From Planctomycetota bacterium (GTDB lineage Bacteria > Planctomycetota > UBA1135 > GCA-002686595), in the NCBI GenBank assembly GCA_009691855.1, contig SIAI01000007.1, positions 33,935 to 97,934 of the forward strand: a stretch of DNA of 64,000 bases. Reading direction: 5' to 3'. Positions 5,701 through 61,244 of this stretch are shown in pieces. The stretch's first letter is position 1. The number at the start of each line of letters is the position of its first letter. A program made the position numbers and the translations under genes. Under the pieces are notes generated by a model. The model was not told where the DNA came from and made no database searches. It worked only from the letters and a program-made list of their open reading frames with translations.

Positions 5701-5742
5701 CGAAACGAAGGGGCCCGAAAGCCGTTGCGTGCCCTCGCGTGC

Positions 5743-7383: not shown

Positions 7384-7740
7384 GGGATTTTCCAAGGATG
7401 TGGGGCGCGCCTGTGCGGGCACCCCGAGGCCCAGGATTCCAGAGCGGTGCAAGGACAACATGGAGCCTCCTGATCCGCAGGACTTGCGCCGAAGGGCAAG
7501 GGGCGGGCCATTGTCGCCCGGCTGGAGAGGACCGAGTCTCTTCGAGACAGGCTGGGGGGTGCGCCTTTCCTCGCGTTGGCGAGCCCCCCGGAGAGAAGCC
7601 ACCTCGATCGACCGTGCGCGAGCGCACACTGCGAGTGCGGATCGGCGCACTCGACCGCCCCCGTCCGAGGCCGTGTTGGCGCACCTTCGAGCACGCGCAA
7701 ATGTGTGGGCCGGCAAAGATGGAGTCGCGCCGCCGGTACG

Positions 7741-26480: not shown

Positions 26481-26604
26481 GGCGCGAGGATAGCAGAGGG
26501 GCAGCCTTACGCTCCTTTCGCGCAACCGCGGTCGGCCGGACGGAGCGGGCCACGCTGAGGGCGGATACGCTTCGCGCCCTCGAACCCCTGTGAGGAGCCC
26601 GATC

Positions 26605-37544: not shown

Positions 37545-37998
37545 CTCGCCAGGTTAACGCGCCCGGTCGCGGCCGCCAGATGTCCCCGCGTTCGGGATCG
37601 CGTGCGTCGGGAGTGCAGCCTTCAGCGTGGGCGCGAGCTCGAGCAGCACGCGCTTTCTCGGGGACGAGCTCGGGCTCGCGTGCCACGAGCCTGAGCGCAA
37701 GTCGGCCCAGCTCGGAGCTGCGCGCGAAAAGGCCGGAAAATAAGGCCCAAACGATTCGCGCGGCTTCTTCCAATCAGCTCAACCGTTCTTGCGAATCGAG
37801 GGCATGATACGGATGAGGAACTTCGAGGATGGGCGCCAAAGTTTGGTCGAGCCCTGCCGCAATGTCGCCTCCGCGCGGAGGAGCATTGTCGGACGGGCAG
37901 ACGAGTCGTCGGGCGAGGACGCCTGGCGAGCGTACCCGCGTCAACAGTCGATGCGCGGCTCGCCCCACGGCCCGTCGCCAGAACCCCAAGAGGTTGTC

Positions 37999-39564
37999 GT
38001 GAACGAAGAACACATTTGGATTCGGCCGGGCCGGGACGCACTGACGCTCGCCGGCCTCATGCTGGCCTTCTCGGCGTTGTCAGAAGCTCAGGCGGGTCCG
38101 TGGAGCGATCACGTGATCGCCCCTTCGACGGGCGGCGCGCTCGCCGCCGCGGACCTCGACGGCGACGACGACCCGGACCTCGTTGCCGGGGGCCTGTGGT
38201 ACGAGAACCTCGGCTCCGGAGCGAGCTGGCTGGCTCACCCGAACGGACTCGTGAGCGCGGATCGGGCCGTCGACCTGGACGGGGATGGCGACGTGGATGT
38301 CCTGGGCACGGGCCTTGGCAGCGGCGTCCTCTACCCGTTCTCCTGGGGTGAGAACGCGACGGGCAACGGGGCCAGCATGGTTGCGCACGCGATCGCCGAG
38401 CTTGCAGCCGGCTCCCTGGCGCTAGGCAGCGCGGCCGCAGACGCGGACGGCGACGGCGATCTGGACGCGCTCGTCCTGGACTCCGCGGGCCAGCTCGCTT
38501 GGCACGAGAACACGCAGGGCACCGCGTCGGTCTGGCTCGCGCATGCGCTCACGGCGCTGGGTTCCCTGCAGTCGTTGGACGTCGGCGACATCGATGGTGA
38601 CGGCGATGTGGACGTCCTCACCGGTGGCGCGAGTGATTTTTCCTGGCACGAGAATGCGCTCGGCGACGGCTCGAGCTGGGTCCCGCACTCGATCCATCGC
38701 GCGAGCTCGTACCACCAGCGCAGCGTACGCGCAACGGACGTCGACGGCGACGGCGCCCTCGATGCGCTGTTCTCGACTCACGAGGGCTCTGCGGCCGGCC
38801 TCTATCGAATGGGATGGCTGCGCAACGTGGGCGGCGGCAGCTCCTGGGTGCTGAACGTCGTGCGCGCCGAAGCCTCCGCGCCTCCGTCGCGGGTGCCCAC
38901 CGTCATCGGGGCCGATCTCGACCGGGATGGGGATACGGATCTGGTCGAGCTCCTCGGGCAGCAGACGGTCTGGTACGAACAAGCCGCTGGCGCCTGGTCG
39001 AGGCATGTCCCTCCCGGCCTGGCCTGGAACGTGGAAGCCGTGCTCGACGTCGATCTCGACGGCGACCGCGACCTCGTGGGCCGCAGCGGGGACATCCACT
39101 GGCGCGAAAACCTGACGACCGTCTCACCCTACGGGAGCGACGTGAACCCGCCGCGCAGCCTGACGCTCGTCGCCGGCACGGCGGCCATCGGTCAGACGTT
39201 CACCTTCGGCCTCGACAATCCGCTGGGGACCCAGACGAGCGGGACGCGCACTCTCCTGAACATCGCGACCGCGCCCGACGAGGAATTCCCGGGCGGGGAT
39301 CTGCTACCGAGCTGGGGCATGGCCGGGCGCGGCGCGGCCGGCGAGCTCTTGCTCTCCTATTCTCACGGGAATCCCGTGGCGCACCTGGCCGGGCCCGACT
39401 GGGCCGGACCGGGCACACTCGCCCTCATCCCGGTCGCCGTTCCGGCGGACCCACGCCTGATCGGGTTGACGGTGTACCTCCAGGGGGTGCTGGTGGATCC
39501 GAGCGCGTCCCTGGGAGTGAAGTTCGGGCTGACGAACGCGCTGCGTATCGAGCTGGGTCCCTGA
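37999..39564 (+). CDS. secreted FG-GAP/VCBS-repeat beta-propeller protein, paralogue 2
   Basis: AAGAGG SD 6 nt before GTG 37999. Signal ...ALTLAGLMLAFSALSEAQA. Repeats DLDGDDDPDLV, DLDGDGDVDVL, DADGDGDLDAL, DIDGDGDVDVL, DVDGDGALDAL, DLDRDGDTDLV, DLDGDRDLV. The C-terminal module is shared with 34122..35519. Confidence 0.8.
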   Translation: MNEEHIWIRPGRDALTLAGLMLAFSALSEAQAGPWSDHVIAPSTGGALAAADLDGDDDPDLVAGGLWYENLGSGASWLAHPNGLVSADRAVDLDGDGDVDVLGTGLGSGVLYPFSWGENATGNGASMVAHAIAELAAGSLALGSAAADADGDGDLDALVLDSAGQLAWHENTQGTASVWLAHALTALGSLQSLDVGDIDGDGDVDVLTGGASDFSWHENALGDGSSWVPHSIHRASSYHQRSVRATDVDGDGALDALFSTHEGSAAGLYRMGWLRNVGGGSSWVLNVVRAEASAPPSRVPTVIGADLDRDGDTDLVELLGQQTVWYEQAAGAWSRHVPPGLAWNVEAVLDVDLDGDRDLVGRSGDIHWRENLTTVSPYGSDVNPPRSLTLVAGTAAIGQTFTFGLDNPLGTQTSGTRTLLNIATAPDEEFPGGDLLPSWGMAGRGAAGELLLSYSHGNPVAHLAGPDWAGPGTLALIPVAVPADPRLIGLTVYLQGVLVDPSASLGVKFGLTNALRIELGP

Positions 39565-45375: not shown

Positions 45376-45681
45376 TCAGGCCACGCGCCCAGGCCGCAGC
45401 GGCTTCAGCGTCACGCTCACGCCGATCCCGACGCGCGCCAGGAGCTCGATCAGCGCGTCGGCGCTGAAGAGGTCGAGCTGGCCGCTCAGCAGGTTGCTCA
45501 CGCGCGGCTGGCTGACGCCGAGGAGCTTCGCGGCGGCGGACTGCGTGAGCTCGCGCTTGCGGACGTTCTCCTGCAGCGCCACGAGGAGCTCGGCTCGCAC
45601 GCGCAGGTGCTCGGCCTCCGCGGGGGCGAAGCCGAGAGTCTCGAACACGTTGGGTTGCTTCTTGGAGCGTTGCGTTCTCAT
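45376..45681 (-). CDS. XRE-family HTH antitoxin (HigA-like)
   Basis: 101 aa. LTQSAAAKLLGVSQPRVSNLLSG HTH. The ATG overlaps the toxin stop (ATGA 45678-45681). Confidence 0.8.
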   Translation of the reverse strand: MRTQRSKKQPNVFETLGFAPAEAEHLRVRAELLVALQENVRKRELTQSAAAKLLGVSQPRVSNLLSGQLDLFSADALIELLARVGIGVSVTLKPLRPGRVA

Positions 45682-46073
45682 GATTCGACCTGCGGACGCC
45701 GTTCCCTCGTCAAGGCGCCAAGGCGCTGACGTGCTTTCTGCACATCCCGCGACGCCGTCCTTCGCGTGCGCTTCTCGAAGGCGTGCAGGACGCAGAGTCC
45801 CTCGGCAGAGCGCGTGACGTAGATCACGCGCTGCTCCTGGCGAGTGTGGATACGGATCTCGCGCACGCATGGACCGATGCTCGGCATGGGCTTCCAGTCG
45901 TCGGGGTCCAGGCCCTGCTGGAGTCGCCAGAGCTGGTACCCGGCCATCTTCCGGGCGCCCGGCGGGAAGCGCCGGAGAGCGGCGAGCGCCGAACCCGGCC
46001 ATCGGATCGGCCGTTCTTCATCGCCCGGACTATACTGAATCTTGTATGGACTGAATCTTGTCTGGATGGTCAA
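45678..46073 (-). CDS. RelE/HigB-superfamily toxin (Gp49/DUF891-like); 5' end ambiguous, possibly frameshifted
   Basis: IRWPGSALAALRRFPPGARKMAGYQLWRLQQGLDPDDWKPMPSIGPCVREIRIH...VIYVTR..GLCVLHAFEKRTRRT matches the Gp49-like toxin pattern. The only in-frame canonical start upstream is TTG 46073. The natural-looking ATG (46021) is 1 nt out of frame. Confidence 0.65.
   Translation of the reverse strand: MTIQTRFSPYKIQYSPGDEERPIRWPGSALAALRRFPPGARKMAGYQLWRLQQGLDPDDWKPMPSIGPCVREIRIHTRQEQRVIYVTRSAEGLCVLHAFEKRTRRTASRDVQKARQRLGALTRERRPQVES
46034..46061. repeat. two 12-bp direct repeats ACTGAATCTTGT (16-bp period) at the TA promoter, candidate operator
   Basis: Exact copies at 46034-46045 and 46050-46061, in the only AT-rich patch of the region. 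On the minus strand a TATAGT -10-like hexamer (46034-46029) abuts them. Confidence 0.45.
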
Positions 46074-46226
46074 GCGGCCCTCCCGGCCTCGGTGCGAGGC
46101 CCGTGGGGCGATGACTCCCCTGCGGCGTACGGGTTTCACGTGCTTGCTCGTCGCCGAGCTCGCTCCCCGCGGTGGTCGCGGGCGGGTTGAGGTCATCCAC
46201 TCGCGGCCGGCATCTATGCTCCTGAC

Positions 46227-49200
46227 GTGGGCACGAGCGATCCCCTCATCGATTCGGCGTTGCAGGAGGCTGGCTGGCTGCGGCGGCTGGCGCGCTCGTT
46301 GGTGAAGGACGCGGGGCGCGCCGAGGATGCGTTGCAGGAGACGTGGGTCGCCGCGCTCGAGCACGCGGAGGAGCCGCGTTCGTCGCCGCGTGGGTGGCTG
46401 AGCATCACGCTGCGCAACAAGCTGCGTCAGGAGGCGCGGGCGCGCGGTCGCCGCGCGGCGCACGAGCAGCGCGTCGAGCTCGCCCGCTCCGAGCCCTCGG
46501 CGCACGACGTGAGCGAGCGTCTGGAGGTGCAGGCGCTCTTGCTCGAGGCCGTGCGCGGGCTGGAGGAGCCGTATCGAGCCACGATCGTGGCGCGCTTCTT
46601 CGACGGGCTCCCGCCGCGCGCGATCGCGCGCCGCGACGGCGTGCCGGTGCGCACGGTGAACACGCGCCTCGAGCGCGGGCTCGCGCAGCTGCGCGCGCGG
46701 CTCGACGGGAGGTTCGGCGGCGAGCGTTCGGCGTGGCTGGCGGCGCTGTTGCCGTTCGCGGGGTCGGAGTGGAGCGGGCCCTGGAGGCTCGGGGAGGGTC
46801 TGGCCGTGGGAGCGACGCTGAAGGTGACGTTGGTCGTCGTCGTGGTCGCGGGGGCGATCTGGTTTGGAAGGGCGCTGTTCGTGACGGGAGACGAGTCGAG
46901 CAAGTCGGCGGCCGCCGCGGGGGCGACCTCGAGCCCCGATGAGCGCGCGACCGCGCGAGTCGCGGGCTCGCTCGACGATGCGGGCGCGGAGATCTCCAGC
47001 GTCTCGGTGGACGCCGGTCGCGCAGCGATCGTGACGCCGGACGCGTCCACGACGTGCCGCATCCGCGTCGTGAGCGCGAACTCGCACGCTCCCGTGCCCG
47101 GCGCACGAGTGTGGCTGCAGCGCGAGGACGTGGACTACGACTCGCCGGCCTGGAAGCTCGCCATGCGCCGCTTCAACGACGTCGAGCCGGTGTTGCAGAG
47201 TGGCCTCGGCATCGAGCTCGTCCTCGACGAGCGCGGCGAGGTCCTCGTGCCGCGGCCGGCGCGCGAGCTCACGCTCGCGGCGGTGCTCGGTGAGCTGCAC
47301 GGCGAAGGGGACCTCGCGCCCCAGGCCGCGGAGTGCGTCATCGAGGTGAAGCCGTATCGCTCGCTCGCCGTCGAGGTCGTCGATCGCTCCGGCCGACCCG
47401 TGCCGGGCGCGTACGTGGCGCTTTACTCGGGCGAATTCGATCCGTTCGCTTCTTTCTGGACGTGGCCGACGGACGCGGATGGACGAGCCTGGATCCCGAA
47501 GCTCGAGGAGCAGGTCGGGGAGCGGGAGCGCATCGTTCTCGCCCTGACCGGCGGGGTCCCGAGCGAGCCCGAGCTCGTGCGGTTCACGCTGGAGTCCGCG
47601 CCCCGTGAGCCCGTGCGCTTCGTCGTGGGCGACTTCGGTCGTATCGTCGTCCAGCTCTCCGACGCGCGCGGCGAAGCGCTGTCCGCGAACGGCACGGCGA
47701 ACATCGGCGTCGTTTGGGAGCGGCTGCTCGAACCCTCCGGCTCGCAGCGGAAAAACACCGAAGTCTTCGTGCCGGTCTTCGATGGCCGCGCCGCGGCCGT
47801 GTGCGTCGGTCTCGACCTTCCGCTCGCGATCATGGGTGCGGCCGACGGCTACGACAGCGTTTGGCGCGAGGTGCCGGGGCCCACGGAGCCGGGTCAGGAG
47901 CTACGAGTCCTGGTTCCAGTCCAGAGTCGCAAGCCGGTCGCTCGTGGACGCGTGCACGGGATCCCGGCGCTGCTCGGCGCTGCACCAGAAGGAGAAGTCA
48001 CGCTTTGCGGCACAGTCCACGGGCTCGGCTCCTTCTACGCGCGCGTCCGTGAGGGCACATCCTTCGAAGCCTGGCTCCCCACTTCTTACGAGCGCGCGAA
48101 CCTCGCCGTGCCCTGGTTCATCACGCTCTCGTGCGTCGACCGCCCGGCGGTTCACACGCGGGCCGTACCGACGCTCATCGAGGGCGGCATCGACTTCGGC
48201 GACGTCGTGTTCGCTCCCGTACAAGAGCTCGCGCGCGTGCGCGTGGTCGATGAAACGGGCGCAACCGCCGCTTCGGCCGGGGTCGAGACGCGCTCGACCC
48301 TTGGCGTGAGTACGTGGCAAGCCGATGCTTCGGGCGCGTGCATCCTCGTGGGCTCGCTCGCCGAGCTTCCGATCGAGGCACGGGCGTACCGGAACGGGTT
48401 CCTGAAGAGCGCCTGGACGACCCTCGCCACGCCGGGTGCAGAGTCGACGCTCGTCCTGCGCGGCAGCGCGACACTCGAGACGAGCCTGCTCCTGCCGGAG
48501 CGCGTGCGCCTCGAGGAGCTCGAGATCGAGCTCTCCAGCGAGGCCGGCCCTGACGATCCAAAACCCATGCGCGAAGAAGGCCTCGAAGGCGGGCAAGTGC
48601 GCATCCTGAATTGCGAGCCCGGCCACGCGACGCTGTCCGTGACCGACTGGGAGCACAAGCTCCTCTTCGAGCGCACCGGCATCGAGCTCGTCGCCGGCCA
48701 GACGACAGTCCTTGACCCAATCGACCTGCGCGACCTCCTGCACTCCTTCACGCTGAGCTTCGAACATGCGAGCGGCGAGCCCTGGCGTCGCGGGCACGTC
48801 GAGCTACGCCAGCCCGACGGCTCGCTCACGACCTCGACCAACATCGACTCCTCCGGCCGCGCGACGTTCCTCACGCTCCAGACGAGCGTCGATCTGTGGG
48901 CCGTCGGCCGCGGCACGCGTGCACGGCTCTTCGAAGGTGTCCACGACGGCGACCGCTTCGTCCTTCCGGCCTCACCCGCGATCGTGCTCCAGCTCGCCAG
49001 GATCATTCCCCTTCCCGCGCCGCCGCTCGAGCTGATGCTCCGCGCGGATCGCGTTCGTCCCGCCGAGGTGGAGTTCGAGACCTACGACGACGTGGACATC
49101 GAGGATCCCGTCGTCCACGACGACGGCAGCGTGCGCCTCGAGCAGTCCTGGCCCGGCGACTACGCGCTCACCTGGTTCGTGCGCCACACGGGCACGGGCG

Positions 49201-49328
49201 TCGACTTCCCGGTGACGCAGGCGGAACGCCAGACGGTCTCCATCCCGGACACCGCCGTCGCTCCGCTCGTCGAGGCGCGCCTCAAGGCCGAAGAGCTCGC
49301 CCGCGCCGTGCTCGACGCCGGCGGGTGA
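46227..49328 (+). CDS. ECF sigma factor fused via one TM helix to an ~800-aa extracytoplasmic region
   Basis: Sigma region 2 (RAEDALQETWVAAL, WLSITLRNKLRQEARARGRR) and region 4 (YRATIVARFFDGLPPRAIARRDGVPVRTVNTRLERGLAQLR). Then TM LKVTLVVVVVAGAIWFG. Then repeated carboxypeptidase-regulatory-like strands (CRIRVVSANSHAPVPGARVWL, LAVEVVDRSGRPVPGAYVAL, ARVRVVDETGATAASAGV). One uninterrupted frame. Confidence 0.8.
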   Translation: MGTSDPLIDSALQEAGWLRRLARSLVKDAGRAEDALQETWVAALEHAEEPRSSPRGWLSITLRNKLRQEARARGRRAAHEQRVELARSEPSAHDVSERLEVQALLLEAVRGLEEPYRATIVARFFDGLPPRAIARRDGVPVRTVNTRLERGLAQLRARLDGRFGGERSAWLAALLPFAGSEWSGPWRLGEGLAVGATLKVTLVVVVVAGAIWFGRALFVTGDESSKSAAAAGATSSPDERATARVAGSLDDAGAEISSVSVDAGRAAIVTPDASTTCRIRVVSANSHAPVPGARVWLQREDVDYDSPAWKLAMRRFNDVEPVLQSGLGIELVLDERGEVLVPRPARELTLAAVLGELHGEGDLAPQAAECVIEVKPYRSLAVEVVDRSGRPVPGAYVALYSGEFDPFASFWTWPTDADGRAWIPKLEEQVGERERIVLALTGGVPSEPELVRFTLESAPREPVRFVVGDFGRIVVQLSDARGEALSANGTANIGVVWERLLEPSGSQRKNTEVFVPVFDGRAAAVCVGLDLPLAIMGAADGYDSVWREVPGPTEPGQELRVLVPVQSRKPVARGRVHGIPALLGAAPEGEVTLCGTVHGLGSFYARVREGTSFEAWLPTSYERANLAVPWFITLSCVDRPAVHTRAVPTLIEGGIDFGDVVFAPVQELARVRVVDETGATAASAGVETRSTLGVSTWQADASGACILVGSLAELPIEARAYRNGFLKSAWTTLATPGAESTLVLRGSATLETSLLLPERVRLEELEIELSSEAGPDDPKPMREEGLEGGQVRILNCEPGHATLSVTDWEHKLLFERTGIELVAGQTTVLDPIDLRDLLHSFTLSFEHASGEPWRRGHVELRQPDGSLTTSTNIDSSGRATFLTLQTSVDLWAVGRGTRARLFEGVHDGDRFVLPASPAIVLQLARIIPLPAPPLELMLRADRVRPAEVEFETYDDVDIEDPVVHDDGSVRLEQSWPGDYALTWFVRHTGTGVDFPVTQAERQTVSIPDTAVAPLVEARLKAEELARAVLDAGG

Positions 49329-49471: not shown

Positions 49472-51415
49472 TCACTCCGTCCGCTTCCCGCGCAGGTGCT
49501 CGTCCAGGAAGTCGAGATAGGCTTCCGAGGCGCGGATGCGGTTCTCCTTGTTGCGGAAGCCGTGGCCCTCGTCGGGGAAGAGCACGTACTCGACCGGCAC
49601 GCCGTTGGCGCGCACGGCGGCGACGAGCTCGTCGCTCTCGGCTTGCAGCACGCGCGGGTCGTTCTTGCCCTGCACGACGAGCAATGGCTTGGTGATCGAT
49701 TTGGCGTGCAGGAGCGGTGAGCGCGCTTCGAGGCTGGTGCGATCGACGGCGGGGTCGCCCATCTCGGCGAACAGGCCGTCGCGGAAGCTCGCCCACCAGG
49801 CGGGGATGCTCTCCAGCGTGCGGATCCAGTTGGTGACGCCGAAGATGTCGATGCCGACGTCGAACTCGTCGGGCGCGAAGGCGAGCGCGGCGCAGACCAT
49901 GTACCCGCCGTAGCTGCCGCCGACGATGCCGACGCGCTGGCCATCGACCCAGTCGAGCGACTCGAGGTAGCGCCGGCCGAAGATGCAGTCCTTCAGATCG
50001 ACGTCGCCGTGGCGGCGGTCGTCCTGGTGGAAGAAGGTCTTGCCGTAGCCCGAGCTGCCGCGGTTGTTCACCGCCAGCACCGCGTAGCCGTGATTCACGA
50101 GGTGCTGGATCGCGGCGTTGTAGCCGCGCCGGTTCTGGCCGCCCGGACCGCCGTGGACCCACACCAACGCCGGCGCGCGCTGTGTGCTCGAGGCGTTGCG
50201 CGGCTTGTAGAGCAGCGCGGGGATCCCGAGCTCGTCGAAGCTCGGGTAGCGCACGACCTCGGACTCGACCAGGTCGCTCTCCTGGATCGCCGGCGGCAGC
50301 GCGTCGGTCAGGCGCTGGCTGAGGCCCGTGTCGAGGTCCACCATGAAGAGGTTGGCCGGCGCGGCGTCGCTGTTCACGAAGCAGGCCAGGCGATGGCCGC
50401 CAGCCTCGAAGGCCAGGCCGGTGATGTCGCCGGCGGGCAGCTTCGAGAGCAGCGCCTCGCGCCCCGTCGCCGCCTCGAGCACGCGCACGATCGTGCGCGC
50501 GTCGGCGTTCACGGCGGTGGCGATCCAGCGCCCGTCGTCGGAGAAGGAGTAATCGACCACGTCCCAGTCGGCGGCGAAGACCAGCTTGCGCTTCTGCGTG
50601 GCGAGCTCGTAGGACCAAACCGTGTCGAACTCGCTGCCCTCGTTGGTCGTGTAGTAGAGCGTCGAGCCGTCCGGGGCGAAGTCGGCGAAGCCGTGCAGCA
50701 CCGCGCCCTGGTGGGGCGTCACGGGGAGGCGCTCGCCCGGCGTCTTCGGCGACACCAGGTAGAGGTCGCTGTCGGCGTTGTTGTTCTCCTTGCGCAGCGC
50801 GACCCACTTGCCGTCCTTGCTCACCCCCGAGATGTCGAAGCCGCCCGGGTTCTGCAGCAGGAGCTCGCGCTGGTAGCCAGGCGCGACTTCTTCGGTCGCT
50901 GCGGCCTCGATCGGGCGCGGGCCGAAGTGGTAGCGGTAGAGGTCGAAGAACTGCGGGTCGCGCTCGTTCGTCTGCACGAAGAAGGAGCGCTTGTCGGCCG
51001 CCCAACCCGCGAACTGCGCCTTCAGGTTCGCGCCCGGCGTGAGGTCGGCGACGGTGCCGTCCGGGTCGTGCACGTAGAGGTGGTTGAGCTCGTTCCCGCC
51101 TTGGTCGGCGGTGTACAGGAAGCGCCGGTCTTCGGGGAAGAAGCCCACCGAGTAGGTCGCGTCGGTGGTGGAGTGCGTGAGCTGCTCCAGCGCACCGCCC
51201 TCGATCGCCAGCGTGTAGGCGTTGAAGATCCCGCTCTTGTCGCTGGTCACGAGCAGCGCCTTCCCGTCCGGCGAGAACGACGCGCCGGCGTAGGAGGTCG
51301 TGGCGTAGAGCGTCTCGGCGTCGTAGATGCCGCGCCCACCGGCGCCGGAGAGGGCGCTGCAGGCGGCGAGGAACGGCAGGGCGAGGAACGCGAGGAAGGA
51401 GCGGCGTGAAAGCAT
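49472..51415 (-). CDS. secreted S9-family serine peptidase (prolyl oligopeptidase/DPP-like)
   Basis: Signal MLSRRSFLAFLALPFLAAC. N-terminal propeller (FSPDGK, APDGS). Catalytic GGSYGGYM. C-terminal ...FPDEGHGF. Confidence 0.9.
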   Translation of the reverse strand: MLSRRSFLAFLALPFLAACSALSGAGGRGIYDAETLYATTSYAGASFSPDGKALLVTSDKSGIFNAYTLAIEGGALEQLTHSTTDATYSVGFFPEDRRFLYTADQGGNELNHLYVHDPDGTVADLTPGANLKAQFAGWAADKRSFFVQTNERDPQFFDLYRYHFGPRPIEAAATEEVAPGYQRELLLQNPGGFDISGVSKDGKWVALRKENNNADSDLYLVSPKTPGERLPVTPHQGAVLHGFADFAPDGSTLYYTTNEGSEFDTVWSYELATQKRKLVFAADWDVVDYSFSDDGRWIATAVNADARTIVRVLEAATGREALLSKLPAGDITGLAFEAGGHRLACFVNSDAAPANLFMVDLDTGLSQRLTDALPPAIQESDLVESEVVRYPSFDELGIPALLYKPRNASSTQRAPALVWVHGGPGGQNRRGYNAAIQHLVNHGYAVLAVNNRGSSGYGKTFFHQDDRRHGDVDLKDCIFGRRYLESLDWVDGQRVGIVGGSYGGYMVCAALAFAPDEFDVGIDIFGVTNWIRTLESIPAWWASFRDGLFAEMGDPAVDRTSLEARSPLLHAKSITKPLLVVQGKNDPRVLQAESDELVAAVRANGVPVEYVLFPDEGHGFRNKENRIRASEAYLDFLDEHLRGKRTE

Positions 51416-51664
51416 GGATGGAGCCTCCGGGGGCGCTCAGTGTCGTCGCTGCGCGGGGCTTGTGCCAGCCTCGAGCAGGGCGTGATTTTGCTGGCCCCGG
51501 ACCGCCGGGCGTCTTCGCGCACATGCGAGTCCGATCGGGTGAGGGACGAGGAAGCGTGTTCGCCTTCCTACCCACTCTGCGTGCGGCTCCTGCCCAGTTC
51601 TCCGGAGGGTTCGAGCCATGCCGAGGGACGACAATCAGCGGAGTTCTCGTCGCGAGGTATCGCC

Positions 51665-53416
51665 ATGCTCGAATCACGCTCGCTCCGCCTGCTGCGTCCC
51701 CTTGCGCTCCTGCTCGCCCTGACGGCATTGGCGCGAGTGGGCCAGGCACAATGTCAGACCGCGTCCTTCACGGGTGCGGCCGGGCCGGTCGGAGGCTTGG
51801 TCGCCTTCGACGGCGACACGCTGGCCTTCTCTACATGGGGGCACATCGAGATCTTCCGGCGCCAGGGGGCCGTGTGGAACTCGGAGCAGGTCATGGATTT
51901 TTCGTCAGCGCGGGCCATCGCGCTGAGCGGTGACACGCTGGTGCTCTCCAACCCCTACGAGGATCAGGCCGGGGAGGCCTGGGTCGGGAAGGCGCAGATC
52001 TACGAGCGCAACGCCGGCGTGTGGAACCTCGTGCAGGAGCTCCTGCCCAGTTCACCCGTGAGCTACTCCTTCTTCGGCACGGGCGTGGCGCTCGAGGGCG
52101 ATACGCTCGCGGTCGCCCAGGACGCCTGGTACAGCGACGTCGGCTACGGCAGCGTGCACGTCTTCGTGCGCGCGGGCGGAGTGTGGACGCGCCAGGCCGA
52201 GTGGCCCTGCCCCCTCGTTTGGAGCGATATCGCGACCTGCATGGCTCTCGATGGAGAGCGCCTGCTCGTCGGGGTACCGGGCTTCCTTACGAATCCCGGC
52301 CAGGCATTCCTGTACGAACGCACCGGCTCGACGTGGAACCAGATCCAGCGCTTCGCCCAGGGCGACGGGACGCAGTGGGACATCTTCGGTTGGTTCCTCG
52401 CCCTCGACGGGGGCACGGTCGTGATCTCTTCGGGGTTGTCCAGCACGTACCCGTACGCCAGCCTCTACGTCTATGAGGAAGCGGCAGGCTCGTGGCCCCT
52501 GGTCGCACACTTGCCGGGCAATCCCTCCAACGACTGGGGCATGCAGCCCTCGCTCCAGGGTGAGCGCCTGCTCGCCGGTGAATGGAAAAACGCCGACGCC
52601 GGGACGAACGCCGGCGCGGTCCGCGTGTACCGACGTCTGGCGGGCGTCTGGACGGCGACGGACAAGCTCTACGGTGCCGACACGCGGGCCGACGACCAGT
52701 TCGGAAGAACGCTGGCGCAGAGCCAGGGGTACCTGGCCGTCGGCTCCTGGGCGCGCGGTCAAGCCTACGTCTTCGCGCTCGACGATCCCGCTTGCCCGGA
52801 CGCCGCCTTCTCCGCCGCGCCGACCAGCGGTCCCGCGCCGCTCCCGGTCGCCTTCACGGACGAGTCGGGCGGCGGCGTCACCGACTGGAGCTGGGACTTC
52901 GGTGACGGCGGCAGCTCGTTCGCGCAGCATCCGGGGCACACCTACGCCGCCGCCGGGCGCTACAGGGTCGAGCTCCTCGCCACCGGACTCGCGGGGACCG
53001 ATCGCGAGATCCAGCCCGGACTGGTGTTCGTCGGACACGCGGCCAGCGCGACGAGCCGGAACGGTTCGGGCGTGAATCCTCCGTGCCTGGTGAGCACGAG
53101 CTTGCCGCAGATCGGCGGCACCTGGACGGCCGAGATCGACACGAGCGCGCACGCCGGAGCGACCGCGACCCTGCTCCTCGGATGGACGCGCCCGAGCCCG
53201 GGCTGGCTCACGCGCTATGGCGAGTTCCTGATCGACCTCCGTTCGCGCAAGCTGTTCTCGAGCCCGGCCGTGCCCGACGCCAGCGGTGTGGCCCACTATT
53301 CCTTCCCGATCCCCAACGACCTCGCGCTGGACGGGTTCACCCTCTCGACGCAGGGCGGAGCCCTCGGCGGCTTGCCGGAGCTGTGCAACGCCGTCGATCT
53401 CGTGACCGGGTTCTGA
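51665..53416 (+). CDS. secreted FG-GAP-like beta-propeller + PKD domain + C-terminal module protein
   Basis: ATG 51665, signal LRPLALLLALTALARVGQAQ. Repeated 'GDTL.V.....G.V.VF.R.GG.W' blades. PKD WSWDFGDGGSSFAQHPGHTYAAAGRY. The C-terminal GSGVNPP...IPNDLALDG module is related to the FG-GAP paralogues. Confidence 0.8.
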   Translation: MLESRSLRLLRPLALLLALTALARVGQAQCQTASFTGAAGPVGGLVAFDGDTLAFSTWGHIEIFRRQGAVWNSEQVMDFSSARAIALSGDTLVLSNPYEDQAGEAWVGKAQIYERNAGVWNLVQELLPSSPVSYSFFGTGVALEGDTLAVAQDAWYSDVGYGSVHVFVRAGGVWTRQAEWPCPLVWSDIATCMALDGERLLVGVPGFLTNPGQAFLYERTGSTWNQIQRFAQGDGTQWDIFGWFLALDGGTVVISSGLSSTYPYASLYVYEEAAGSWPLVAHLPGNPSNDWGMQPSLQGERLLAGEWKNADAGTNAGAVRVYRRLAGVWTATDKLYGADTRADDQFGRTLAQSQGYLAVGSWARGQAYVFALDDPACPDAAFSAAPTSGPAPLPVAFTDESGGGVTDWSWDFGDGGSSFAQHPGHTYAAAGRYRVELLATGLAGTDREIQPGLVFVGHAASATSRNGSGVNPPCLVSTSLPQIGGTWTAEIDTSAHAGATATLLLGWTRPSPGWLTRYGEFLIDLRSRKLFSSPAVPDASGVAHYSFPIPNDLALDGFTLSTQGGALGGLPELCNAVDLVTGF

Positions 53417-53546: not shown

Positions 53547-55673
<2,127 letters not shown>

Positions 55674-55810
55674 GCCCGGTGCTGAAGGCTCAGCGGGGGA
55701 ACGTTACCGGATTCCCAAGGCTTTCACGCGCCGATGTGAGCGGGTTCGAGCGCGGCGCGCTCCTCACGTCCGGGCGGCGCTAGGATGGCGGCCCACCGGA
55801 GGGGACAACC

Positions 55811-56407
55811 TTGCTGATTCGAGTCTTGTTACGAGTCTTGTTCGTGGTGCTCGCGCTCACGACCGCGGGGATGCTCTTCAGCGCGCCGCCTGCGGAGTTC
55901 GACGCGGCCGAGAGGCTGCAGCGCGCCTTCGTCCTCGGCGGGTGGGCCGTGGGCAGCGCGGGGCTCGCGGTCCCGTGGGGGCGCTGGCTGAGGCTCGTCT
56001 CGCCCGGGGGGAACCTCGGCTTCGCCTCGAAGTTTCTGGGCTGGGCCGGCGCGTGCGCGGTGCCGGCCGCGCTCGCCTCCGGCCGGGTCGCGGTGGCGCT
56101 CGTCGGCGTGTTCCTCGTCGTCGCCGCGAGCGCGCTGTGGAAGGGCAAGCTCTGGGCCGCCTGGGCCTGGTATCCGATCGCCCTGGCCGCTTTCGTCGGG
56201 AGTATGTGGAGTCTTCTGCGCTTGTTCGGCTTCTTCCAGACGGACACGGCCGCCGAGAGCGCCTTCGCACAGGGACAGAGAGTGGGCGGGGTGCTGGGCG
56301 TCGTGCTTTGGGGTGCCATCGGCCTTGCCCTCTGGCGCGAGATCACGGCATGGCGCCGCGCGCGCAGTGCACCCGACTCCGCACCCGCCGAGCCTTCGGC
56401 TCGCTGA
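55811..56407 (+). CDS. hypothetical polytopic membrane protein
   Basis: TTG start. Five hydrophobic helices, Trp-rich, high GC3. It sits between the kinase and the ECF sigma on the opposite strand. Confidence 0.6.
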   Translation: MLIRVLLRVLFVVLALTTAGMLFSAPPAEFDAAERLQRAFVLGGWAVGSAGLAVPWGRWLRLVSPGGNLGFASKFLGWAGACAVPAALASGRVAVALVGVFLVVAASALWKGKLWAAWAWYPIALAAFVGSMWSLLRLFGFFQTDTAAESAFAQGQRVGGVLGVVLWGAIGLALWREITAWRRARSAPDSAPAEPSAR

Positions 56408-56411
56408 GCGC

Positions 56412-57110
56412 TCACTCCAGCGCGCGCCGCAGCACGTCCACCTCGTCCTCGACCTCGCCCGGCGCGACGGTCTCGCGTACCTCGTCGCGCACCAGCTCGC
56501 CGAAGCGCCGGCGCAGGCGGTGGAGCGCGACGCGCACGGCGTTCTCGCTGCAGGCGAGCGTGGCGGCGAGCTGCGCGCCGTGGCCGCGCTCGTCGGTGAC
56601 GGCGAGGTAGGGCTCGAGCGCGCGCCACTGGGCGAGCTTGCCGATCGATTCCTGTTCCATTGCCAGACGCTCCCGCGCGCGCTCGAGCACGGCCGCGGCC
56701 CAGGCGCGCTCGAACTCGCGCTCGGGCGTGAGCGCGGTGGCCGGCTCGAAGGCGCGCTCGAGCTCCGCCAGCGCCGCCGAATCGAGCGAGAGCGGGCGCG
56801 GGCCACGCTTCGCGGCGTTCTCGCGCGCGTGCTCGTTGGCGAGGTAATGCCGCAGCGCGCCCAGCAAGAACGAACGGAAGCGCCCGCGCTCGGGATCCGC
56901 CTGGGCGAAGTCGTCCTTCTCCAGCAGGCGCGCGAAGAAGCCCTGCGTGAGGTCCTCGGCTAGAACCGGATGTGCGCCCTGGCGCCGCACGAAGGCGTAG
57001 ACCGGAGGCCAATACGCGCGACACAGCGTATCGAGCGCCGCGCGACGCTCGGGCGCGCTCGCGTGACTCGCCGCGCGCACCAGAGTCCAGCGCGTCGTCT
57101 GGAAGGGCAT
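56412..57110 (-). CDS. ECF sigma factor of the Ser/Thr-kinase-associated type (ECF43-like)
   Basis: N-terminus MPFQTTRWTLVRAA...LCRAYWPPVYAFVRRQG...EDLTQGFFARLLEKD. GRFRSFLLGALRHYLANE. Region 4 LAATLACSENAVRVALHRLRRRF. Confidence 0.85.
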   Translation of the reverse strand: MPFQTTRWTLVRAASHASAPERRAALDTLCRAYWPPVYAFVRRQGAHPVLAEDLTQGFFARLLEKDDFAQADPERGRFRSFLLGALRHYLANEHARENAAKRGPRPLSLDSAALAELERAFEPATALTPEREFERAWAAAVLERARERLAMEQESIGKLAQWRALEPYLAVTDERGHGAQLAATLACSENAVRVALHRLRRRFGELVRDEVRETVAPGEVEDEVDVLRRALE

Positions 57111-57301: not shown

Positions 57302-58720
57302 GTGCACAAACCCATGAGCCGAATCCTCGCCGTCAGCCTCCTCGCCGCCCTCACGACCACGCTCGTTCACGCGCAACAAGCCGCGGCCACGCCCGTGCGC
57401 CCCTGGACGCTGCTCGTCTACGGCGGCGCCGACAACAACGCCGACGGGCCGATCCTCGAGTTCCTCGACCAGGTGCGCGTGGCGATCGACGACGACCCGG
57501 GTATCGAGCTCTTGCTGCTCCTCGATCGCAGCGACAAGTTCTCGGACGACGCCACGATGCTGGGCTCGGACTTCAGCGGGGTGCAGCTCTTCCGCCTGCA
57601 CAAGATGACGGCCGAGCGCCTGTCCGGCGGCGCGGAGTTTCCCGAGCTCACGCTGGATTCCGAGGCCGAGCTCGACTCGGCCGACGCCGACAACCTGCGC
57701 CGCTTCATCGACTGGGGCAAGGCGCACTACCCGGCCCAGCACTACGGCGTGATGATCTACAGCCACGCCAGCGGGCGCTCGATGTGCCCCGACCAGGAGA
57801 GCGGACACGACATGGGCATCCCCGAGCTCAGCCAGGTGCTGAGCGCGAAGCAGTCGGTCGACTTCCTGGCGCTCGAGCTGTGCAACATGGGCGGGATCGA
57901 GATCAGCTACCAGTGGCGCCCGGCCGCCGACAAGGAGGCGCCGCGCTTCGGCGCCGACGTGCTCGTCGCGATCCCCAATGCCGGCCCGCCGCTCGACTGG
58001 GACCGCGCCTTCGCGCGCATCCGCTCCAAGGGGCACACGGCGAGCCCGTTGAAGGCGCCGTTCCTCGATCCCGCAACGATGACCGCGGCCGACTTCGGCA
58101 AGCTGGTGATGGAGGAGGGCCAGCGCGGGCGCGAGCTCGCCAAGGAGCGGCGCCCCGAGCGCGTCGCGCACGAGGCCGCCGGCTGCTACGACCTGCGCCA
58201 GGCGAAGGCCGTGAAGCAGGGGCTCGACGCGCTCGCCGTGACGCTCGCCGCGCACCCCGACGAGAAGGACATGTTCATGGAGATGCGCGGGCCCGGGCCG
58301 ATCGGCGACGCGCTCACCTACGACGAGGGCGGCCCGTTCATCGACCTCTACGACCTGACACGGCGCGCGGCCGAGTGCGATGGCTTGAGCGACGCGACGC
58401 GCGCGGCGGCCAAGAAGGTGATGGAGAGCTGCGACGCCTTCGTGCTCGCCTCCTTCGGCATGTCCGGCTACCCCGGCTTCGCCGGCGGCAAGAACGGCGT
58501 GTTCGTGATCCTGCCCGTGGACGAGCCGGGCCGCTGGAAGAACTTCACCTGGTACACGCCGCTCGCGCACGACGAGGGCGGCAAGGACATCGGCCACTGG
58601 TCGTTCCTCGCGGACGGCGCCACGCCGAACAACGGCAAGGTCGAGAACTGGTTCGAGCTGCTCGACTGTTGGTTCGACGCCGCCGACGACGCGGGCGGGG
58701 TGAACGGCTACCGCTACTGA
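57302..58720 (+). CDS. secreted clostripain-family (C11) cysteine peptidase
   Basis: Signal SRILAVSLLAALTTTLVHAQQ (start GTG 57302 or ATG 57314). TLLVYGGADNN, MIYSHASGR (His), LALELCNMGG (Cys). Confidence 0.8.
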   Translation: MHKPMSRILAVSLLAALTTTLVHAQQAAATPVRPWTLLVYGGADNNADGPILEFLDQVRVAIDDDPGIELLLLLDRSDKFSDDATMLGSDFSGVQLFRLHKMTAERLSGGAEFPELTLDSEAELDSADADNLRRFIDWGKAHYPAQHYGVMIYSHASGRSMCPDQESGHDMGIPELSQVLSAKQSVDFLALELCNMGGIEISYQWRPAADKEAPRFGADVLVAIPNAGPPLDWDRAFARIRSKGHTASPLKAPFLDPATMTAADFGKLVMEEGQRGRELAKERRPERVAHEAAGCYDLRQAKAVKQGLDALAVTLAAHPDEKDMFMEMRGPGPIGDALTYDEGGPFIDLYDLTRRAAECDGLSDATRAAAKKVMESCDAFVLASFGMSGYPGFAGGKNGVFVILPVDEPGRWKNFTWYTPLAHDEGGKDIGHWSFLADGATPNNGKVENWFELLDCWFDAADDAGGVNGYRY

Positions 58721-58782
58721 AGCGGCGAATCCTCGAACCCTGTGGGGCTCGTACGGCATCCTGGGGGCATGGAGACGCACGC

Positions 58783-59706
58783 TTGAAGAACCTCGCCTTC
58801 GCCCTGTCGACCTTCCTCGCCCTGCCCTGCGCTCTCGCCGCCCAGGCGCCCACCGCGCGCGCAGCCGAGGACGCGCTGCTCGCCAAGCACGTCGCCACGC
58901 TGCGCGAGCTCGTCGCCGGTCCGCCCGAGGCGCCGCGTCCGCAGGTGCTGCTCCTCGGCACGTTCCACCTCGACAATCCCGGGCTCGATACGCACAAGCC
59001 GAAGTACACCTTCGACGTGTTCGGCGAGGAGGGGCAGCGCCAGCTCGCCGAGCTGCTCGCGCGCCTGGCCGAGTTCCGCCCGACGAAGATCCTGGTGGAG
59101 CAGCCGAGCGACGCACAAGGGAGCCTCGATCGCTGGTACGCGAGCTACAAGGCCGGCAATAGCACGAAGACCGCCAACGAGGTCGTCACCGTCGGCTTCG
59201 CGCTCGCCCAGCGCCTCACGCACGAGCGCGTCTACGCCTTCGACGCGCGTCCGGAGTGGCTGCCGACGGCGCCCGACACGGACGAAGCCATGCGCGAGGA
59301 AGCCGAGCGCATGGGCAAGCTCGAGTTCCTCGAAGACCCGGTGAGCGCGCTCTACTCGCGCGCCTATGCGCAGGGCGACGAGATCGAGGAGACGCTGAGC
59401 CTGCGTCAACGCCTGCGCCTCTTGAACCACCCCGACATGCTGCGCGCGAGCCACGGCGCGTACTTCTTCTTCGCCGGCTTCCGCGTCAACGACGGCGAGA
59501 ACTTCCCCGGACCGGACGGCTTCGCCAGCGCCTGGCACAACCGCAACCTGCGCATGTTCAGCAACATCCAGCGCCTGGCGAGCGCGCCCGACGAGCGCCT
59601 GCTGGTGATCGTCGGCGCCGGGCACGTGCCGATCCTGCAGCAGTGCGTGCAGTGCTGCCCGACCCTGGCGTGGGTCTCGGCCTACGACTTCCTCGCGCCC
59701 CGCTGA
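58783..59706 (+). CDS. secreted TraB/GumN-like (DUF5694-type) protein
   Basis: TTG 58783 with GGAGA 8 nt upstream. Signal LKNLAFALSTFLALPCALAAQA. VLLLGTFHLDNPGLD, FRPTKILVEQ, NEVVTVGFALAQRL, VIVGAGHVPIL. Confidence 0.55.
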   Translation: MKNLAFALSTFLALPCALAAQAPTARAAEDALLAKHVATLRELVAGPPEAPRPQVLLLGTFHLDNPGLDTHKPKYTFDVFGEEGQRQLAELLARLAEFRPTKILVEQPSDAQGSLDRWYASYKAGNSTKTANEVVTVGFALAQRLTHERVYAFDARPEWLPTAPDTDEAMREEAERMGKLEFLEDPVSALYSRAYAQGDEIEETLSLRQRLRLLNHPDMLRASHGAYFFFAGFRVNDGENFPGPDGFASAWHNRNLRMFSNIQRLASAPDERLLVIVGAGHVPILQQCVQCCPTLAWVSAYDFLAPR

Positions 59707-59719
59707 GCGCGCTCCGCCG

Positions 59720-60502
59720 ATGCCGCGCATCCGCCTCGTCCACTGGAAGGAAGCCGAGGGCAACGCGCGCGCGCGCGAGCTGCGCGCTGCCGGTCTGCGG
59801 GTCGAGTACGAACTCGACGCGCCCGCCGCGCTGCGCGCGAGCAAAGAGGAGCCGCCGGACGCGCTCGTGATCGACCTCACGCGCTTGCCCTCGCACGGCC
59901 GCGAGATGGCCTGGGCGCTGCGCACGAGCAAGAAGACACGTCACGTGCCGCTGGTGTTCGTGGGCGGCGAGCCGGCCAAGGTCGCGCGCATCCACAAGGA
60001 GCTGCCGGATGCGAGCTACTGCGAGTGGAAGGACGCTGCACGCGCGATCGAACGCGCGCTTGCCGCTCCGCCGCGCGAGCCGGTCGTGCCCGAATCGAAG
60101 CACTTCTACGCCGACAAGCCGCTGGCCGGGAAGCTCGGCTGGAAGGCTGGCGCGACGCTGGCGCTGGTCGACGCGCCGGACGGTTGCGAGCGCTTGCTCG
60201 GCGCGCAGCCCGAGGGCGCGAAGCTCGTGCGCGGCCTGCGCGGGAAGCCGGAGCTCGTGCTGTGGTTCGTGCGCAGCGAGAAGGAGCTGCGCGCCGCGCT
60301 GCCGAAGTGGAAGAAGGCCGCCGCGGCCGGCACGCGCGTGTGGGTCTGCTGGCCGAAGAAGGGCTCGGCGCTCGCGACCGACCTGACGGGCGAGCGCGTG
60401 CGCACCGCTCCGCACGCGCTGGGTCTCGTGGACTTCAAGATCTGCGCGCTCGACGCGGACTGGTCGGGGATGTGCTTCGCGCTGCGCAAGGCGGGCGCGT
60501 GA
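59720..60502 (+). CDS. receiver-like domain fused to a DUF3052-like domain
   Basis: The N-terminal CheY-like pattern (RIRLVHW..., PDALVIDLTRLPSHGRE, PLVFVGG) lacks the usual acidic pair. The C-terminal part is LGWKAGATLALVDAPDG...VWVCWPKKGS. Confidence 0.5.
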   Translation: MPRIRLVHWKEAEGNARARELRAAGLRVEYELDAPAALRASKEEPPDALVIDLTRLPSHGREMAWALRTSKKTRHVPLVFVGGEPAKVARIHKELPDASYCEWKDAARAIERALAAPPREPVVPESKHFYADKPLAGKLGWKAGATLALVDAPDGCERLLGAQPEGAKLVRGLRGKPELVLWFVRSEKELRAALPKWKKAAAAGTRVWVCWPKKGSALATDLTGERVRTAPHALGLVDFKICALDADWSGMCFALRKAGA

Positions 60503-60524
60503 GCCAGAAGCGGAGCTGAGGCGT

Positions 60525-61244
60525 TTGCTGGACACCCCGTGGCAGCCAGTCGGTCCGCTGGGCGCCGTCTACCTACTCTTGATCGGGCTCCTCTTGCCTA
60601 GGGCGGTGTGGAAGTCGGGCCGGCGCGCTCGGGACCTGCCGGCGCCGCCGCGCACGACGTACATCCTGAGCGCGCTGCAGACGGCCGCTGTCCTGGGCGG
60701 CCTGGGCCTGTGGGTCGCGCGCGTCGAGGGCCTCGCGCTCTTCCCCGGCGCCTTGCCGCTGCCGCGCGACATCGGTCTCGGGCTCCTGGCCACGGTCGTG
60801 CTCGTGCTGGTGCTGGCGCCCTATCGCGCGAGGATCGCACGCAGGCGCGACCGGAGCATGCAGCACTTCTGCGAGCCGACGCGCACGGACCGCGCGCTGT
60901 GGGTGGTGCTGTCGCTCTCGGCGGGCTTCTGGGAGGAGCTCGTCTACCGGGGCGTGCTGTGCACACTGCTGGCGCGGGTCACGGGCAGCGCGCCGCTCGC
61001 CGTCGCGCTGGCGCTGCTCGCTTTCACGCTCGGGCACCTCCATCGGAGTTGGAGCGCGCTGATACCGGTGGCCGTGATCGGCCTCGTGCTGCACGCGTTC
61101 GTGTTCCTCACTGGCACGCTGTACGTCGCGATGGGGGTTCACTTGCTCTACGACGTGGCCACCGGCTTCGCCTACATGCGCCTGGCGGCGAAGCACGGGA
61201 TCACGCGCGAGGTGCCGCCGGCCGGAGGGCCCGCGCCATCCTGA
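60525..61244 (+). CDS. CPBP-family intramembrane glutamic endopeptidase (CAAX protease-like)
   Basis: Motif 1 FWEELVYRG. Motif 2 FTLGHL. Motif 3 H(A/L)..(D/N) region VHLLYDV. Polytopic. Confidence 0.8.
   Translation: MLDTPWQPVGPLGAVYLLLIGLLLPRAVWKSGRRARDLPAPPRTTYILSALQTAAVLGGLGLWVARVEGLALFPGALPLPRDIGLGLLATVVLVLVLAPYRARIARRRDRSMQHFCEPTRTDRALWVVLSLSAGFWEELVYRGVLCTLLARVTGSAPLAVALALLAFTLGHLHRSWSALIPVAVIGLVLHAFVFLTGTLYVAMGVHLLYDVATGFAYMRLAAKHGITREVPPAGGPAPS

Follow-up and report, generated by a model that had tools for sequence, protein, structure and literature searches.

The 64,000-nucleotide window analysed here (contig SIAI01000007.1 of assembly GCA_009691855.1, positions 33,935 to 97,934) comes from a Planctomycetota metagenome-assembled genome (MAG) and contains, at 46227-49328 on the forward strand, a gene that joins an extracytoplasmic function (ECF) sigma factor to a membrane anchor and a large outer domain. 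The gene is a complete open reading frame (ORF) with a GTG start, encoding 1033 amino acids (aa; GenBank MSR61631.1), and residue 1 is also the point where the alignment with its orthologues starts. From the N-terminus the product is composed of sigma regions 2 and 4, a tether of ~35 aa, one transmembrane (TM) helix, a disordered spacer and an ectodomain. The gene is monocistronic, with a divergent toxin-antitoxin pair upstream and a convergent gene for a secreted S9 peptidase downstream. No anti-sigma gene adjoins it, and none was found beside its orthologues, whose contexts are unrelated; tblastn detected no paralogue within the window. We conclude that the gene encodes a genuine one-polypeptide, membrane-anchored ECF sigma factor belonging to a very large Planctomycetota family. 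All features of the gene given below lie on the forward strand.

The G+C content is ~70% across the whole window, and along nearly the entire ORF the third codon position has the highest G+C. In the frame of the ORF, G+C at the third position (GC3) was 0.88-0.97 in all 180-nt windows across the sigma/TM junction (46620-46979), and a hidden frameshift is unlikely because GC3 is unbroken there. Long antisense ORFs were treated as the usual artefacts of high-G+C DNA, except for a real toxin gene at 45678-45953. The three orthologues (P0002-P0004) share 51-54% identity over the full length and have the same unbroken architecture, and the complete genome of Saltatorellus ferox likewise agrees with a single uninterrupted ORF through the junction. 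The sequence-only reading had proposed one chain in which a sigma factor is followed by a linker of ~40 residues, a single TM helix and an extracytoplasmic part of ~800 aa, and had named a stop or frameshift before the helix, or a missing helix, as what would speak against it. Neither a stop nor a frameshift was found, the helix is not missing, and Pfam, hydropathy and AlphaFold2 all return the proposed anatomy. Two AlphaFold2 models were used: one of the full-length protein from a 16-sequence alignment (mean predicted local distance difference test, pLDDT, 77) and one of aa 1-228 from a 31-sequence alignment.

Sigma region 2 occupies aa 15-76 (46269-46454; Pfam Sigma70_r2, 3.6e-10; pLDDT >90 with the deep alignment) and sigma region 4 occupies aa 104-155 (46536-46691; Pfam Sigma70_r4_2, 4.4e-9), whose structures superpose with a template modelling score (TM-score) of ~0.8 and with 1-2 Å root mean square deviation (rmsd). 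These two matches and that of the CarboxypepD_reg unit described below exceed the Pfam gathering scores. By Pfam the protein has sigma2 and sigma4 without sigma3 or sigma1.1, which places it in the ECF group (group 4), and the NCBIfam model TIGR02937 for sigma70-ECF scored 57.4 bits against a cutoff of 42.9. The specific NCBIfam subfamilies were far under every cutoff, including the planctomycetal TIGR02989 (43.8 against 124.55) and TIGR02984 (27.2 against 183.75). A profile of the sigma-linker-TM part searched against the PDB matched SigL, SigE and SigH of Mycobacterium tuberculosis and SigW of Bacillus subtilis, only to position ~161, and no anti-sigma chain; Foldseek also matched the sigma part to ECF sigma structures. 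In the full-length model the sigma helices extend to aa 162. The modelled sigma deviates from holoenzyme-bound ECF sigmas by an rmsd of 7.5-11 Å and from compact anti-sigma-bound ones by 18-21 Å, and since the model fits the holoenzyme-bound conformations better, there is no sign of a built-in occlusion. With regions 2 and 4 intact and a holoenzyme-like model, the sigma domain looks functional. Pfam gave no match to an anti-sigma family in the full protein or in the isolated aa 157-272, so that the lack of a recognisable anti-sigma domain, already remarked on from the letters of the sequence, holds by Pfam and by the PDB profile.

The tether carries the motif GGxRxAWxxALxPLA at aa 164-178 (46716-46760), which is conserved in the family and contains a helix at aa 167-177, modelled in aa 1-228 with pLDDT block means of 95 and 84. 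Among 238 members W170 is conserved in 97%, R167 in 90%, G165 in 87%, L174 in 84% and P176 in 84%. The fuller consensus in these members reads GG(D/E)RxAWxxALxPLA, followed by a variable loop, GxxMxxKxK, and an Ala/Gly-rich TM helix ending in Trp. In our protein aa 178-192 are disordered in the full-length model, the pre-membrane segment GxxMxxKxK lies at aa 191-199 (46797-46823; G191 81%, K199 71%, K197 39%) on what would be the cytoplasmic face, and the single Ala/Gly-rich TM helix, ending with Trp212, lies at aa ~193-218 (46803-46880), as placed by hydropathy, AlphaFold2 and conservation. Hydropathy gives one strong hydrophobic segment at aa ~190-222, with a Kyte-Doolittle 19-residue maximum of 2.24, and AlphaFold2 gives one long helix at aa 193-217 (full length) or 196-218, both in agreement with the one helix first read from the sequence.

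The topology is probably N-in and C-out, as suggested by the N-termini of standalone homologues, the Lys residues on the N-side, the distribution of Cys and the cytoplasmic role of the sigma. Sigma factors have to be cytoplasmic to work. The standalone homologues of the ectodomain have a short MRx N-terminus that is followed at once by the TM helix. All seven Cys of the protein are in the ectodomain, and aa 1-276 are Cys-free. The 15-residue flanks of the helix hold 1.35 and 1.65 K+R in the positive-inside count, and only the conserved KxK just before the helix is informative as a charge signal for topology. We also considered whether the hydrophobic linker motif could form another TM helix, which would make the big domain cytoplasmic, and rejected this: uncharged runs in the motif are 7 residues long in the median and never exceed 13, compared with a median of 18 in the TM helix.

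The helix is followed by a Ser/Ala-rich disordered spacer, predicted to be extracytoplasmic, at aa 219-272 (46881-47042; pLDDT 25-30), and by an all-beta ectodomain at aa 273-1033 (47043-49325), in which AlphaFold2 and Foldseek indicate ~8 beta-sandwich units and a C-terminal helix. The beta region proper, aa 273-1016 (~745 aa), has pLDDT values mostly of 80-95. Several sandwiches resembling carboxypeptidase regulatory domains had been proposed from the sequence. By sequence only one unit is recognisable, CarboxypepD_reg at aa 380-428 (47364-47510; Pfam 3.8e-11), which spans aa ~377-458 when eight ectodomain segments are searched one by one with Pfam; as a fold the proposal stands, the remaining ~7 units being visible only in the AlphaFold2 model and the Foldseek matches. 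Foldseek matched the ectodomain only to tandem Ig/CnaB/MG arrays, namely the Bacillus anthracis TIE protein, Gram-positive pilins, adhesins and alpha-2-macroglobulins, with low global TM-scores and no enzyme fold among the matches, and its sequence gave nothing above chance level against the PDB. An alpha-2-macroglobulin-like thioester was looked for by sequence inspection and rejected, as the protein lacks CxEQ and its conserved Cys796 belongs to 'CEPG'. Conservation within the ectodomain peaks at aa 307-327 (nt ~47145-47207), '..RFNDVEPVLQSGLG..', where a helical segment is inserted into the first beta-sandwich and W309, M313, R315, D318, E320, L323 and G326 are invariant in fused and standalone forms; this segment may be a site for a ligand or partner.

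The fusion is kept far beyond the three orthologues. The sigma-tether-TM module was searched against 1.84 billion cluster representatives (clusters at 50% identity), and 1,332 representatives matched it at E <= 1e-30. Among the top 150 of these, 117 are at least 600 aa long (median 861 aa), 123 have the tether motif and 99 have no Cys within the first 170 aa, and the TM helix is at ~aa 200 in 135 of the 145 that have at least 240 aa. In 112 further fused relatives, nearly all have a single hydrophobic segment beginning at aa 185-215. A scan of species-representative genomes gave fused ORFs of 570-1290 aa in essentially all Planctomycetota matches, with at least two family copies in several genomes, and in cultured Saltatorellus ferox Poly30, whose chromosome is complete (NZ_CP036434.1), two fused loci lie around 2,555,800 and 4,643,000 (L019 and L021). 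In Chloroflexia and Actinomycetota the distant matches cover the sigma core only and belong to ECFs of the ordinary kind, 160-200 aa long. From these comparisons the family appears to be built of a portable sigma-tether-TM module combined with interchangeable beta-sandwich ectodomains. The locus with the top sigma identity in the genome scan (71%; L003, 790-2330) is frameshifted or truncated right after 'APAGVP' relative to the near-identical full-length P0011; either the gene has become a pseudogene or its MAG is misassembled there. Contigs assigned to MAGs of Myxococcales, Paracoccaceae and Deltaproteobacteria also carry fused members (L011, L028 and L029), which could be due to mis-binning or horizontal transfer.

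Sigma module and ectodomain have different histories. The sigma module shares 60-70% identity with P0011-P0020, its nearest relatives by sigma, and their ectodomains differ. Identity to the orthologues is 77-80% in the sigma, 46% in the ectodomain and 17-24% in the spacer, and a separate comparison gave 70% for the sigma against ~50% for the ectodomain. The fused orthologues are not syntenic. Six standalone ectodomain genes (P0005-P0010; ~845 aa, 39-49% identity) have no adjoining ECF gene; two of them share a context with an HrpB helicase and another comes after a flagellar cluster with a FliA-type sigma. In a neighbour-joining tree of ectodomains the standalone and fused forms are interleaved. 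On one contig (L084) ~2.7 kb separate the standalone P0008 (228-2342) from another sigma-CarboxypepD_reg fusion, of 704 aa (5001-7535), and therefore fused and unfused forms coexist within one genome. Pinto and da Fonseca (PMC7671368) proposed that in planctomycetal ECFs sigma2-sigma4 was duplicated and a neighbour gene captured by 'sequestration', and what such gene sequestration should leave behind is found here: a conserved sigma with unrelated extensions, an extension homologous to non-sigma genes, and an unfixed context. Ratios of nonsynonymous to synonymous substitution rates (dN/dS) were estimated against the orthologues by the Nei-Gojobori method, and were 0.34-0.48 for the sigma, 0.24-0.36 for the TM helix (the lowest), 0.67-0.71 for the ectodomain and 0.83-0.95 for the spacer (near neutral), absolute values being inflated as extreme GC3 bias lowers dS.

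The ~45 nt directly 5' of the start codon are conserved among the three orthologues and contain TGAGGT-15 nt-GGCAT (46188-46213), a candidate family-specific ECF-type promoter that ends 13 nt before the start codon. The pattern [TC]GAG[GT]N-15 nt-GG[CG]A[ATC] (YGAGKN-15 nt-GGSAH) was derived post hoc from the orthologues and other relatives. Of 41 upstream windows of the family, 10 contain it, at -36 to -51, against 0.18 expected (P ~2e-15), and all ten loci are those closest to the query by sigma; some are mutually orthologous, and sequence inspection gives at least five independent lineages. When the spacing was varied from 11 to 20 nt, 15 nt gave 10 matches and the others 0-1, and the reverse strand gave 1. 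Within the window 46188-46213 is the sole intergenic copy; the other copies are intragenic and chance-like, and were rejected as regulon candidates. Read most simply, the element would be an ECF promoter, specific to the family and followed by a very short leader, through which the sigma regulates its own gene. A first dyad search with exact 5-mers and 4-mers gave GC-rich background only, and a scan around the gene for a sigma-70 promoter or an intrinsic terminator gave none above chance. Between GGCAT and the start codon lies a pyrimidine-rich tract (e.g. CTATGCTCCTGAC, CCCCCCTCGG), here at 46214-46226 and also in L002, L005-L007, L009, L010 and L085, and no Shine-Dalgarno sequence was seen in this interval in those loci. 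A very short or unusual leader is suggested because the pyrimidine tract, without a Shine-Dalgarno sequence, stands before the start.

The closest known likeness is IutY of Pseudomonas putida, in which a sigma domain in the cytosol (aa 1-168) is joined through a single TM segment to a periplasmic domain within one chain (PMC5411451). It is activated when its periplasmic part is trimmed by Prc and RseP then cleaves it within or close to the membrane, which frees a sigma of ~23 kDa (PMC5411451; PMC8999054). IutY variants with any periplasmic residues all still require RseP (PMC5411451), and because every such variant needs it, tethering alone keeps IutY inactive. Both proteins have a sigma, a single TM segment and an outside domain in one chain, and IutY is also without a separate cytosolic sigma-binding N-tail. 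IutY (ECF243, FecI-like) is a proteobacterial protein of 374 aa with a FecR-type domain, encoded beside the TonB-dependent transducer IutA; unlike it, the planctomycetal family has a beta-sandwich ectodomain of ~800 aa and a distinct tether motif. No match to FecR or a related Pfam family was obtained in the full protein or the eight ectodomain segments, and no TonB-dependent transducer adjoins the fused gene, whose neighbours are the Gp49/HTH_37 pair and the S9 peptidase. The earlier statement that neither proteolytic release nor transcription at the membrane was known to have been established by experiment for such an architecture is overstated, as release of IutY by Prc and RseP was shown (PMC5411451). 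Proteolytic release of a covalently anchored sigma is thus established in principle by IutY, and may extend by analogy to the planctomycetal family.

Other extended ECFs share parts of this design. ECF48, ECF52 and ECF53 of Actinobacteria have membrane-spanning C-terminal extensions with predicted proteolytic activation (PMC8999054; PMC5826349), and SCO4117 was studied genetically (PMC5826349), so it goes too far to say, as did the sequence-only reading, that the well-studied C-terminal extensions of ECFs are cytoplasmic. These groups resemble our protein in joining an ECF sigma via TM helices to an extracytoplasmic C-terminal part, and differ in a zinc-finger (ZAS-like) domain between sigma and TM and in Pro-rich and carbohydrate-binding regions. 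A ZAS-type zinc finger is not found here: the N-terminal part up to aa 276 has no Cys, there was no Pfam match to zf-HC2, RskA or similar, and ~35 residues separate sigma4 from the TM helix. Planctomycetal ECFs with large captured C-terminal extensions have already been described (PMC7671368), and our family is like them in phylum, in several copies per genome, in conserved sigma2 and sigma4, and in interchangeable extensions homologous to non-sigma genes. The Saltatorellus clade was reported to be particularly rich in ECFs (bioRxiv 10.1101/817700). Large C-terminal extensions are also found in the planctomycetal groups ECF01-Gob, which probably combines a TM helix with WD40 repeats, and ECF57, for which descriptions give WD40-like repeats and a conserved pair of Cys that links sigma2 to sigma4; membership of ECF57 was rejected, as there is no WD40 match (the model is a beta-sandwich array) and the sigma part lacks Cys. 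Membership of the ECF41 or ECF42 type, with SnoaL_2 or TPR after sigma4 and no TM, was rejected as well, since a TM helix is present and neither domain matched.

Among systems with a separate anti-sigma, the pairs sigmaE-RseA, sigmaW-RsiW and sigmaV-RsiV also have a single-pass protein with an extracytoplasmic sensor that undergoes site-1 and then site-2 proteolysis, by which the sigma is set free (PMC8999054). In pairs of the sigmaE-RseA type, however, a separate sigma is held by a cytoplasmic anti-sigma domain that is later degraded, whereas here the link is covalent. The family size, the conserved tether, the standalone ectodomain genes and the fixed-spacing upstream element of the closest relatives are new here. 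Membrane association of a sigma is also familiar from pro-sigmaK of B. subtilis, which is inactive until cleaved by SpoIVFB of the site-2 protease (S2P) family; it differs in being a group-3 sigma with a short N-terminal pro-sequence and in having no C-terminal TM and ectodomain.

We consider IutY-like activation by regulated proteolysis the most likely mechanism, and hold this analogy with moderate confidence. The sigma would be in the cytoplasm and the ectodomain outside, and the anchored sigma would not productively direct transcription. A presumed signal on the ectodomain would lead to a site-1 cut in the exposed spacer or the ectodomain, the disordered spacer being the likely site-1 region, and until then the large ectodomain would shield the full-length protein from the site-2 protease. 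The shortened stub would become the substrate of a site-2 intramembrane protease, presumably of the RseP/M50 type, and the freed sigma of ~20-23 kDa would bind RNA polymerase and transcribe its regulon. This regulon probably includes the sigma's own gene, via the conserved upstream element. Of the two outcomes suggested in the sequence-only reading, proteolytic release is therefore the best supported, by the IutY precedent, and transcription at the membrane is kept only as a low-ranked rival.

Several points weigh against such a mechanism. Inactivity while tethered is proposed by analogy only, and with no anti-sigma domain nothing visibly blocks binding to RNA polymerase. The ectodomain is unrelated to the FecR-type domain of IutY and a TonB-dependent transducer is not adjacent. 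No protease gene is tied to the locus, and an M50 site-2 protease was not found among the scanned genes of the window. The upstream element lacks the usual ECF promoter hallmarks 'AAC ... CGT' (PMC8103513) and was defined post hoc. Furthermore, the ectodomain has not evolved as a dedicated sensor, since standalone gene versions of it exist.

In one rival reading the sigma is active while tethered and recruits RNA polymerase to membrane-proximal DNA, like activators of the ToxR/CadC type, with the ectodomain modulating it through conformation or oligomerisation and not by cleavage. The missing anti-sigma domain and the extended, holoenzyme-like sigma model are consistent with this, the disordered aa ~178-195 would give slack between sigma4 and the membrane, and the small-xxx-small spacing in the TM helix (A201/A205/G209) could mediate dimerisation. 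The slack is only ~15-20 residues, however, IutY as the only characterised protein of the same topology is inactive until the RseP cut, and in the literature that was searched no membrane-anchored sigma was found to work in holoenzyme, so that we regard activity in the tethered state as unlikely. Inactivity could instead be built in, if the tether helix (aa 167-177) were a minimal anti-sigma like the short class II anti-sigma CnrY, occluding a core- or promoter-binding surface until proteolysis or a conformational signal releases it. The conservation of W170, R167, G165, L174 and P176 (84-97% in the 238 proteins) would fit, and the very high helix confidence for such a short element suggests packing on the sigma domains. 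We nevertheless find a built-in anti-sigma quite improbable, as known anti-sigma domains are all far longer than ~11 residues, searches for anti-sigma families and structures gave no match, and the modelled sigma2-sigma4 is extended and not clamped. It is just as doubtful that release is coupled to export, with the TM helix as an internal signal sequence and signal peptidase making the site-1 cut just outside the membrane, as in RsiV; the ectodomain would then be freed as a periplasmic or surface protein, and each export event would free one sigma via the site-2 protease. The standalone N-terminus does resemble a signal peptide or anchor and begins exactly at the same TM helix, the helix is followed by an Ala/Ser-rich region in which Pro is frequently conserved, and at a median of 18 residues the hydrophobic stretch is short if it is to anchor the protein stably. 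Ala/Ser-rich spacers, however, hold AxA-like motifs by chance, and unregulated cleavage combined with positive autoregulation would run away.

Two readings that deny the fusion a function or an existence are effectively excluded. A duplicated sigma might have been read into a neighbour gene by accident, leaving one half functionless: fortuitous insertion and 'gene sequestration' were proposed by Pinto and da Fonseca, standalone ectodomains exist and interleave with fused ones in the tree, and the relative L003 is frameshifted or truncated. A meaningless accident is disfavoured because the sigma and the TM helix are under the strongest constraint; the sigma is also better conserved than the ectodomain, whose dN/dS is itself below 1, and more than 1,300 clusters retain the sigma-tether-TM spacing and motif, all of which makes such an accident very improbable. 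That an assembly artefact masks a stop or frameshift before the TM helix, the gene being really an ordinary sigma/anti-sigma pair, is hardly credible at all; the source is a MAG, but GC3 periodicity is continuous over the junction and the same unbroken ORF is present in independent assemblies (40-70% identity) and in the complete genome of a cultured strain.

Returning to IutY-like release, a bolder version can be put forward as speculation that is probably wrong in its entirety. A distinct one-component transmembrane sigma system would be dominant in Saltatorellus-like planctomycetes and controlled purely by covalent anchoring, its portable sigma-tether-TM cassette would be attached to many different beta-sandwich proteins of the surface, the invariant Trp helix would be docked on sigma4, and the long Ig-like arrays would be envelope-spacing, mechanical or protease-bait sensors, damage to which, or cleavage of which, directly releases the sigma. 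Most ECF biology is framed on a separate anti-sigma partner, and more than 1,000 clusters here anchor the sigma covalently without an anti-sigma domain. If the IutY-like mechanism is true, IutY would no longer be a 'unique hybrid' but the proteobacterial example of a widespread design, and a simple annotation rule would follow for 'sigma-70 family' proteins of ~850-1000 aa. No concept is overturned, and to a specialist the finding is expected more than surprising; it deserves notice for its scale, the tether module and the missing anti-sigma domain. With a conserved tether motif, a candidate promoter and a cultured host in Saltatorellus ferox Poly30, the family is directly testable.

The toxin-antitoxin pair upstream of the fused gene (45376-45953, reverse strand) consists of a Gp49/HigB-like toxin (45678-45953) and an HTH_37/XRE antitoxin (45376-45687). 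Translated from its ATG, the toxin enters the Pfam profile at position 12, so that translation may really begin further upstream, at a non-canonical codon. At 46035-46066 on the forward strand, in a relatively AT-rich divergent intergenic region, CTGAATCTTGT(A/C)TGGA x2 forms a perfect direct repeat in tandem (0 expected by chance); it overlaps what may be the 5' end of the toxin gene and could serve as operator for the antitoxin or as promoter of the toxin-antitoxin pair. Elsewhere in the window, 26590-28134, 34122-35519, 37789-39564, 49472-53416 and 57302-61244 hold peptidase, FG-GAP and membrane-protease genes, namely Peptidase_S10, two FG-GAP, Peptidase_S9, FG-GAP/PKD, Peptidase_C11 (clostripain-like) and an Rce1-like CAAX membrane protease, and no link from any of these to the fused gene emerged. 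A second ECF-type sigma of ordinary length, with the N-terminus 'TTRWTLV', is encoded at 56412-57110 (reverse strand), close to the gene of a Ser/Thr kinase of 708 aa that has a membrane region (53547-55673, reverse strand), and a hydrophobic 198-aa ORF lies between them (55811-56407, forward strand). We take the arrangement at 53547-57110 to be the known planctomycetal pairing of ECF and kinase, and therefore the window has two different non-canonical types of ECF control.

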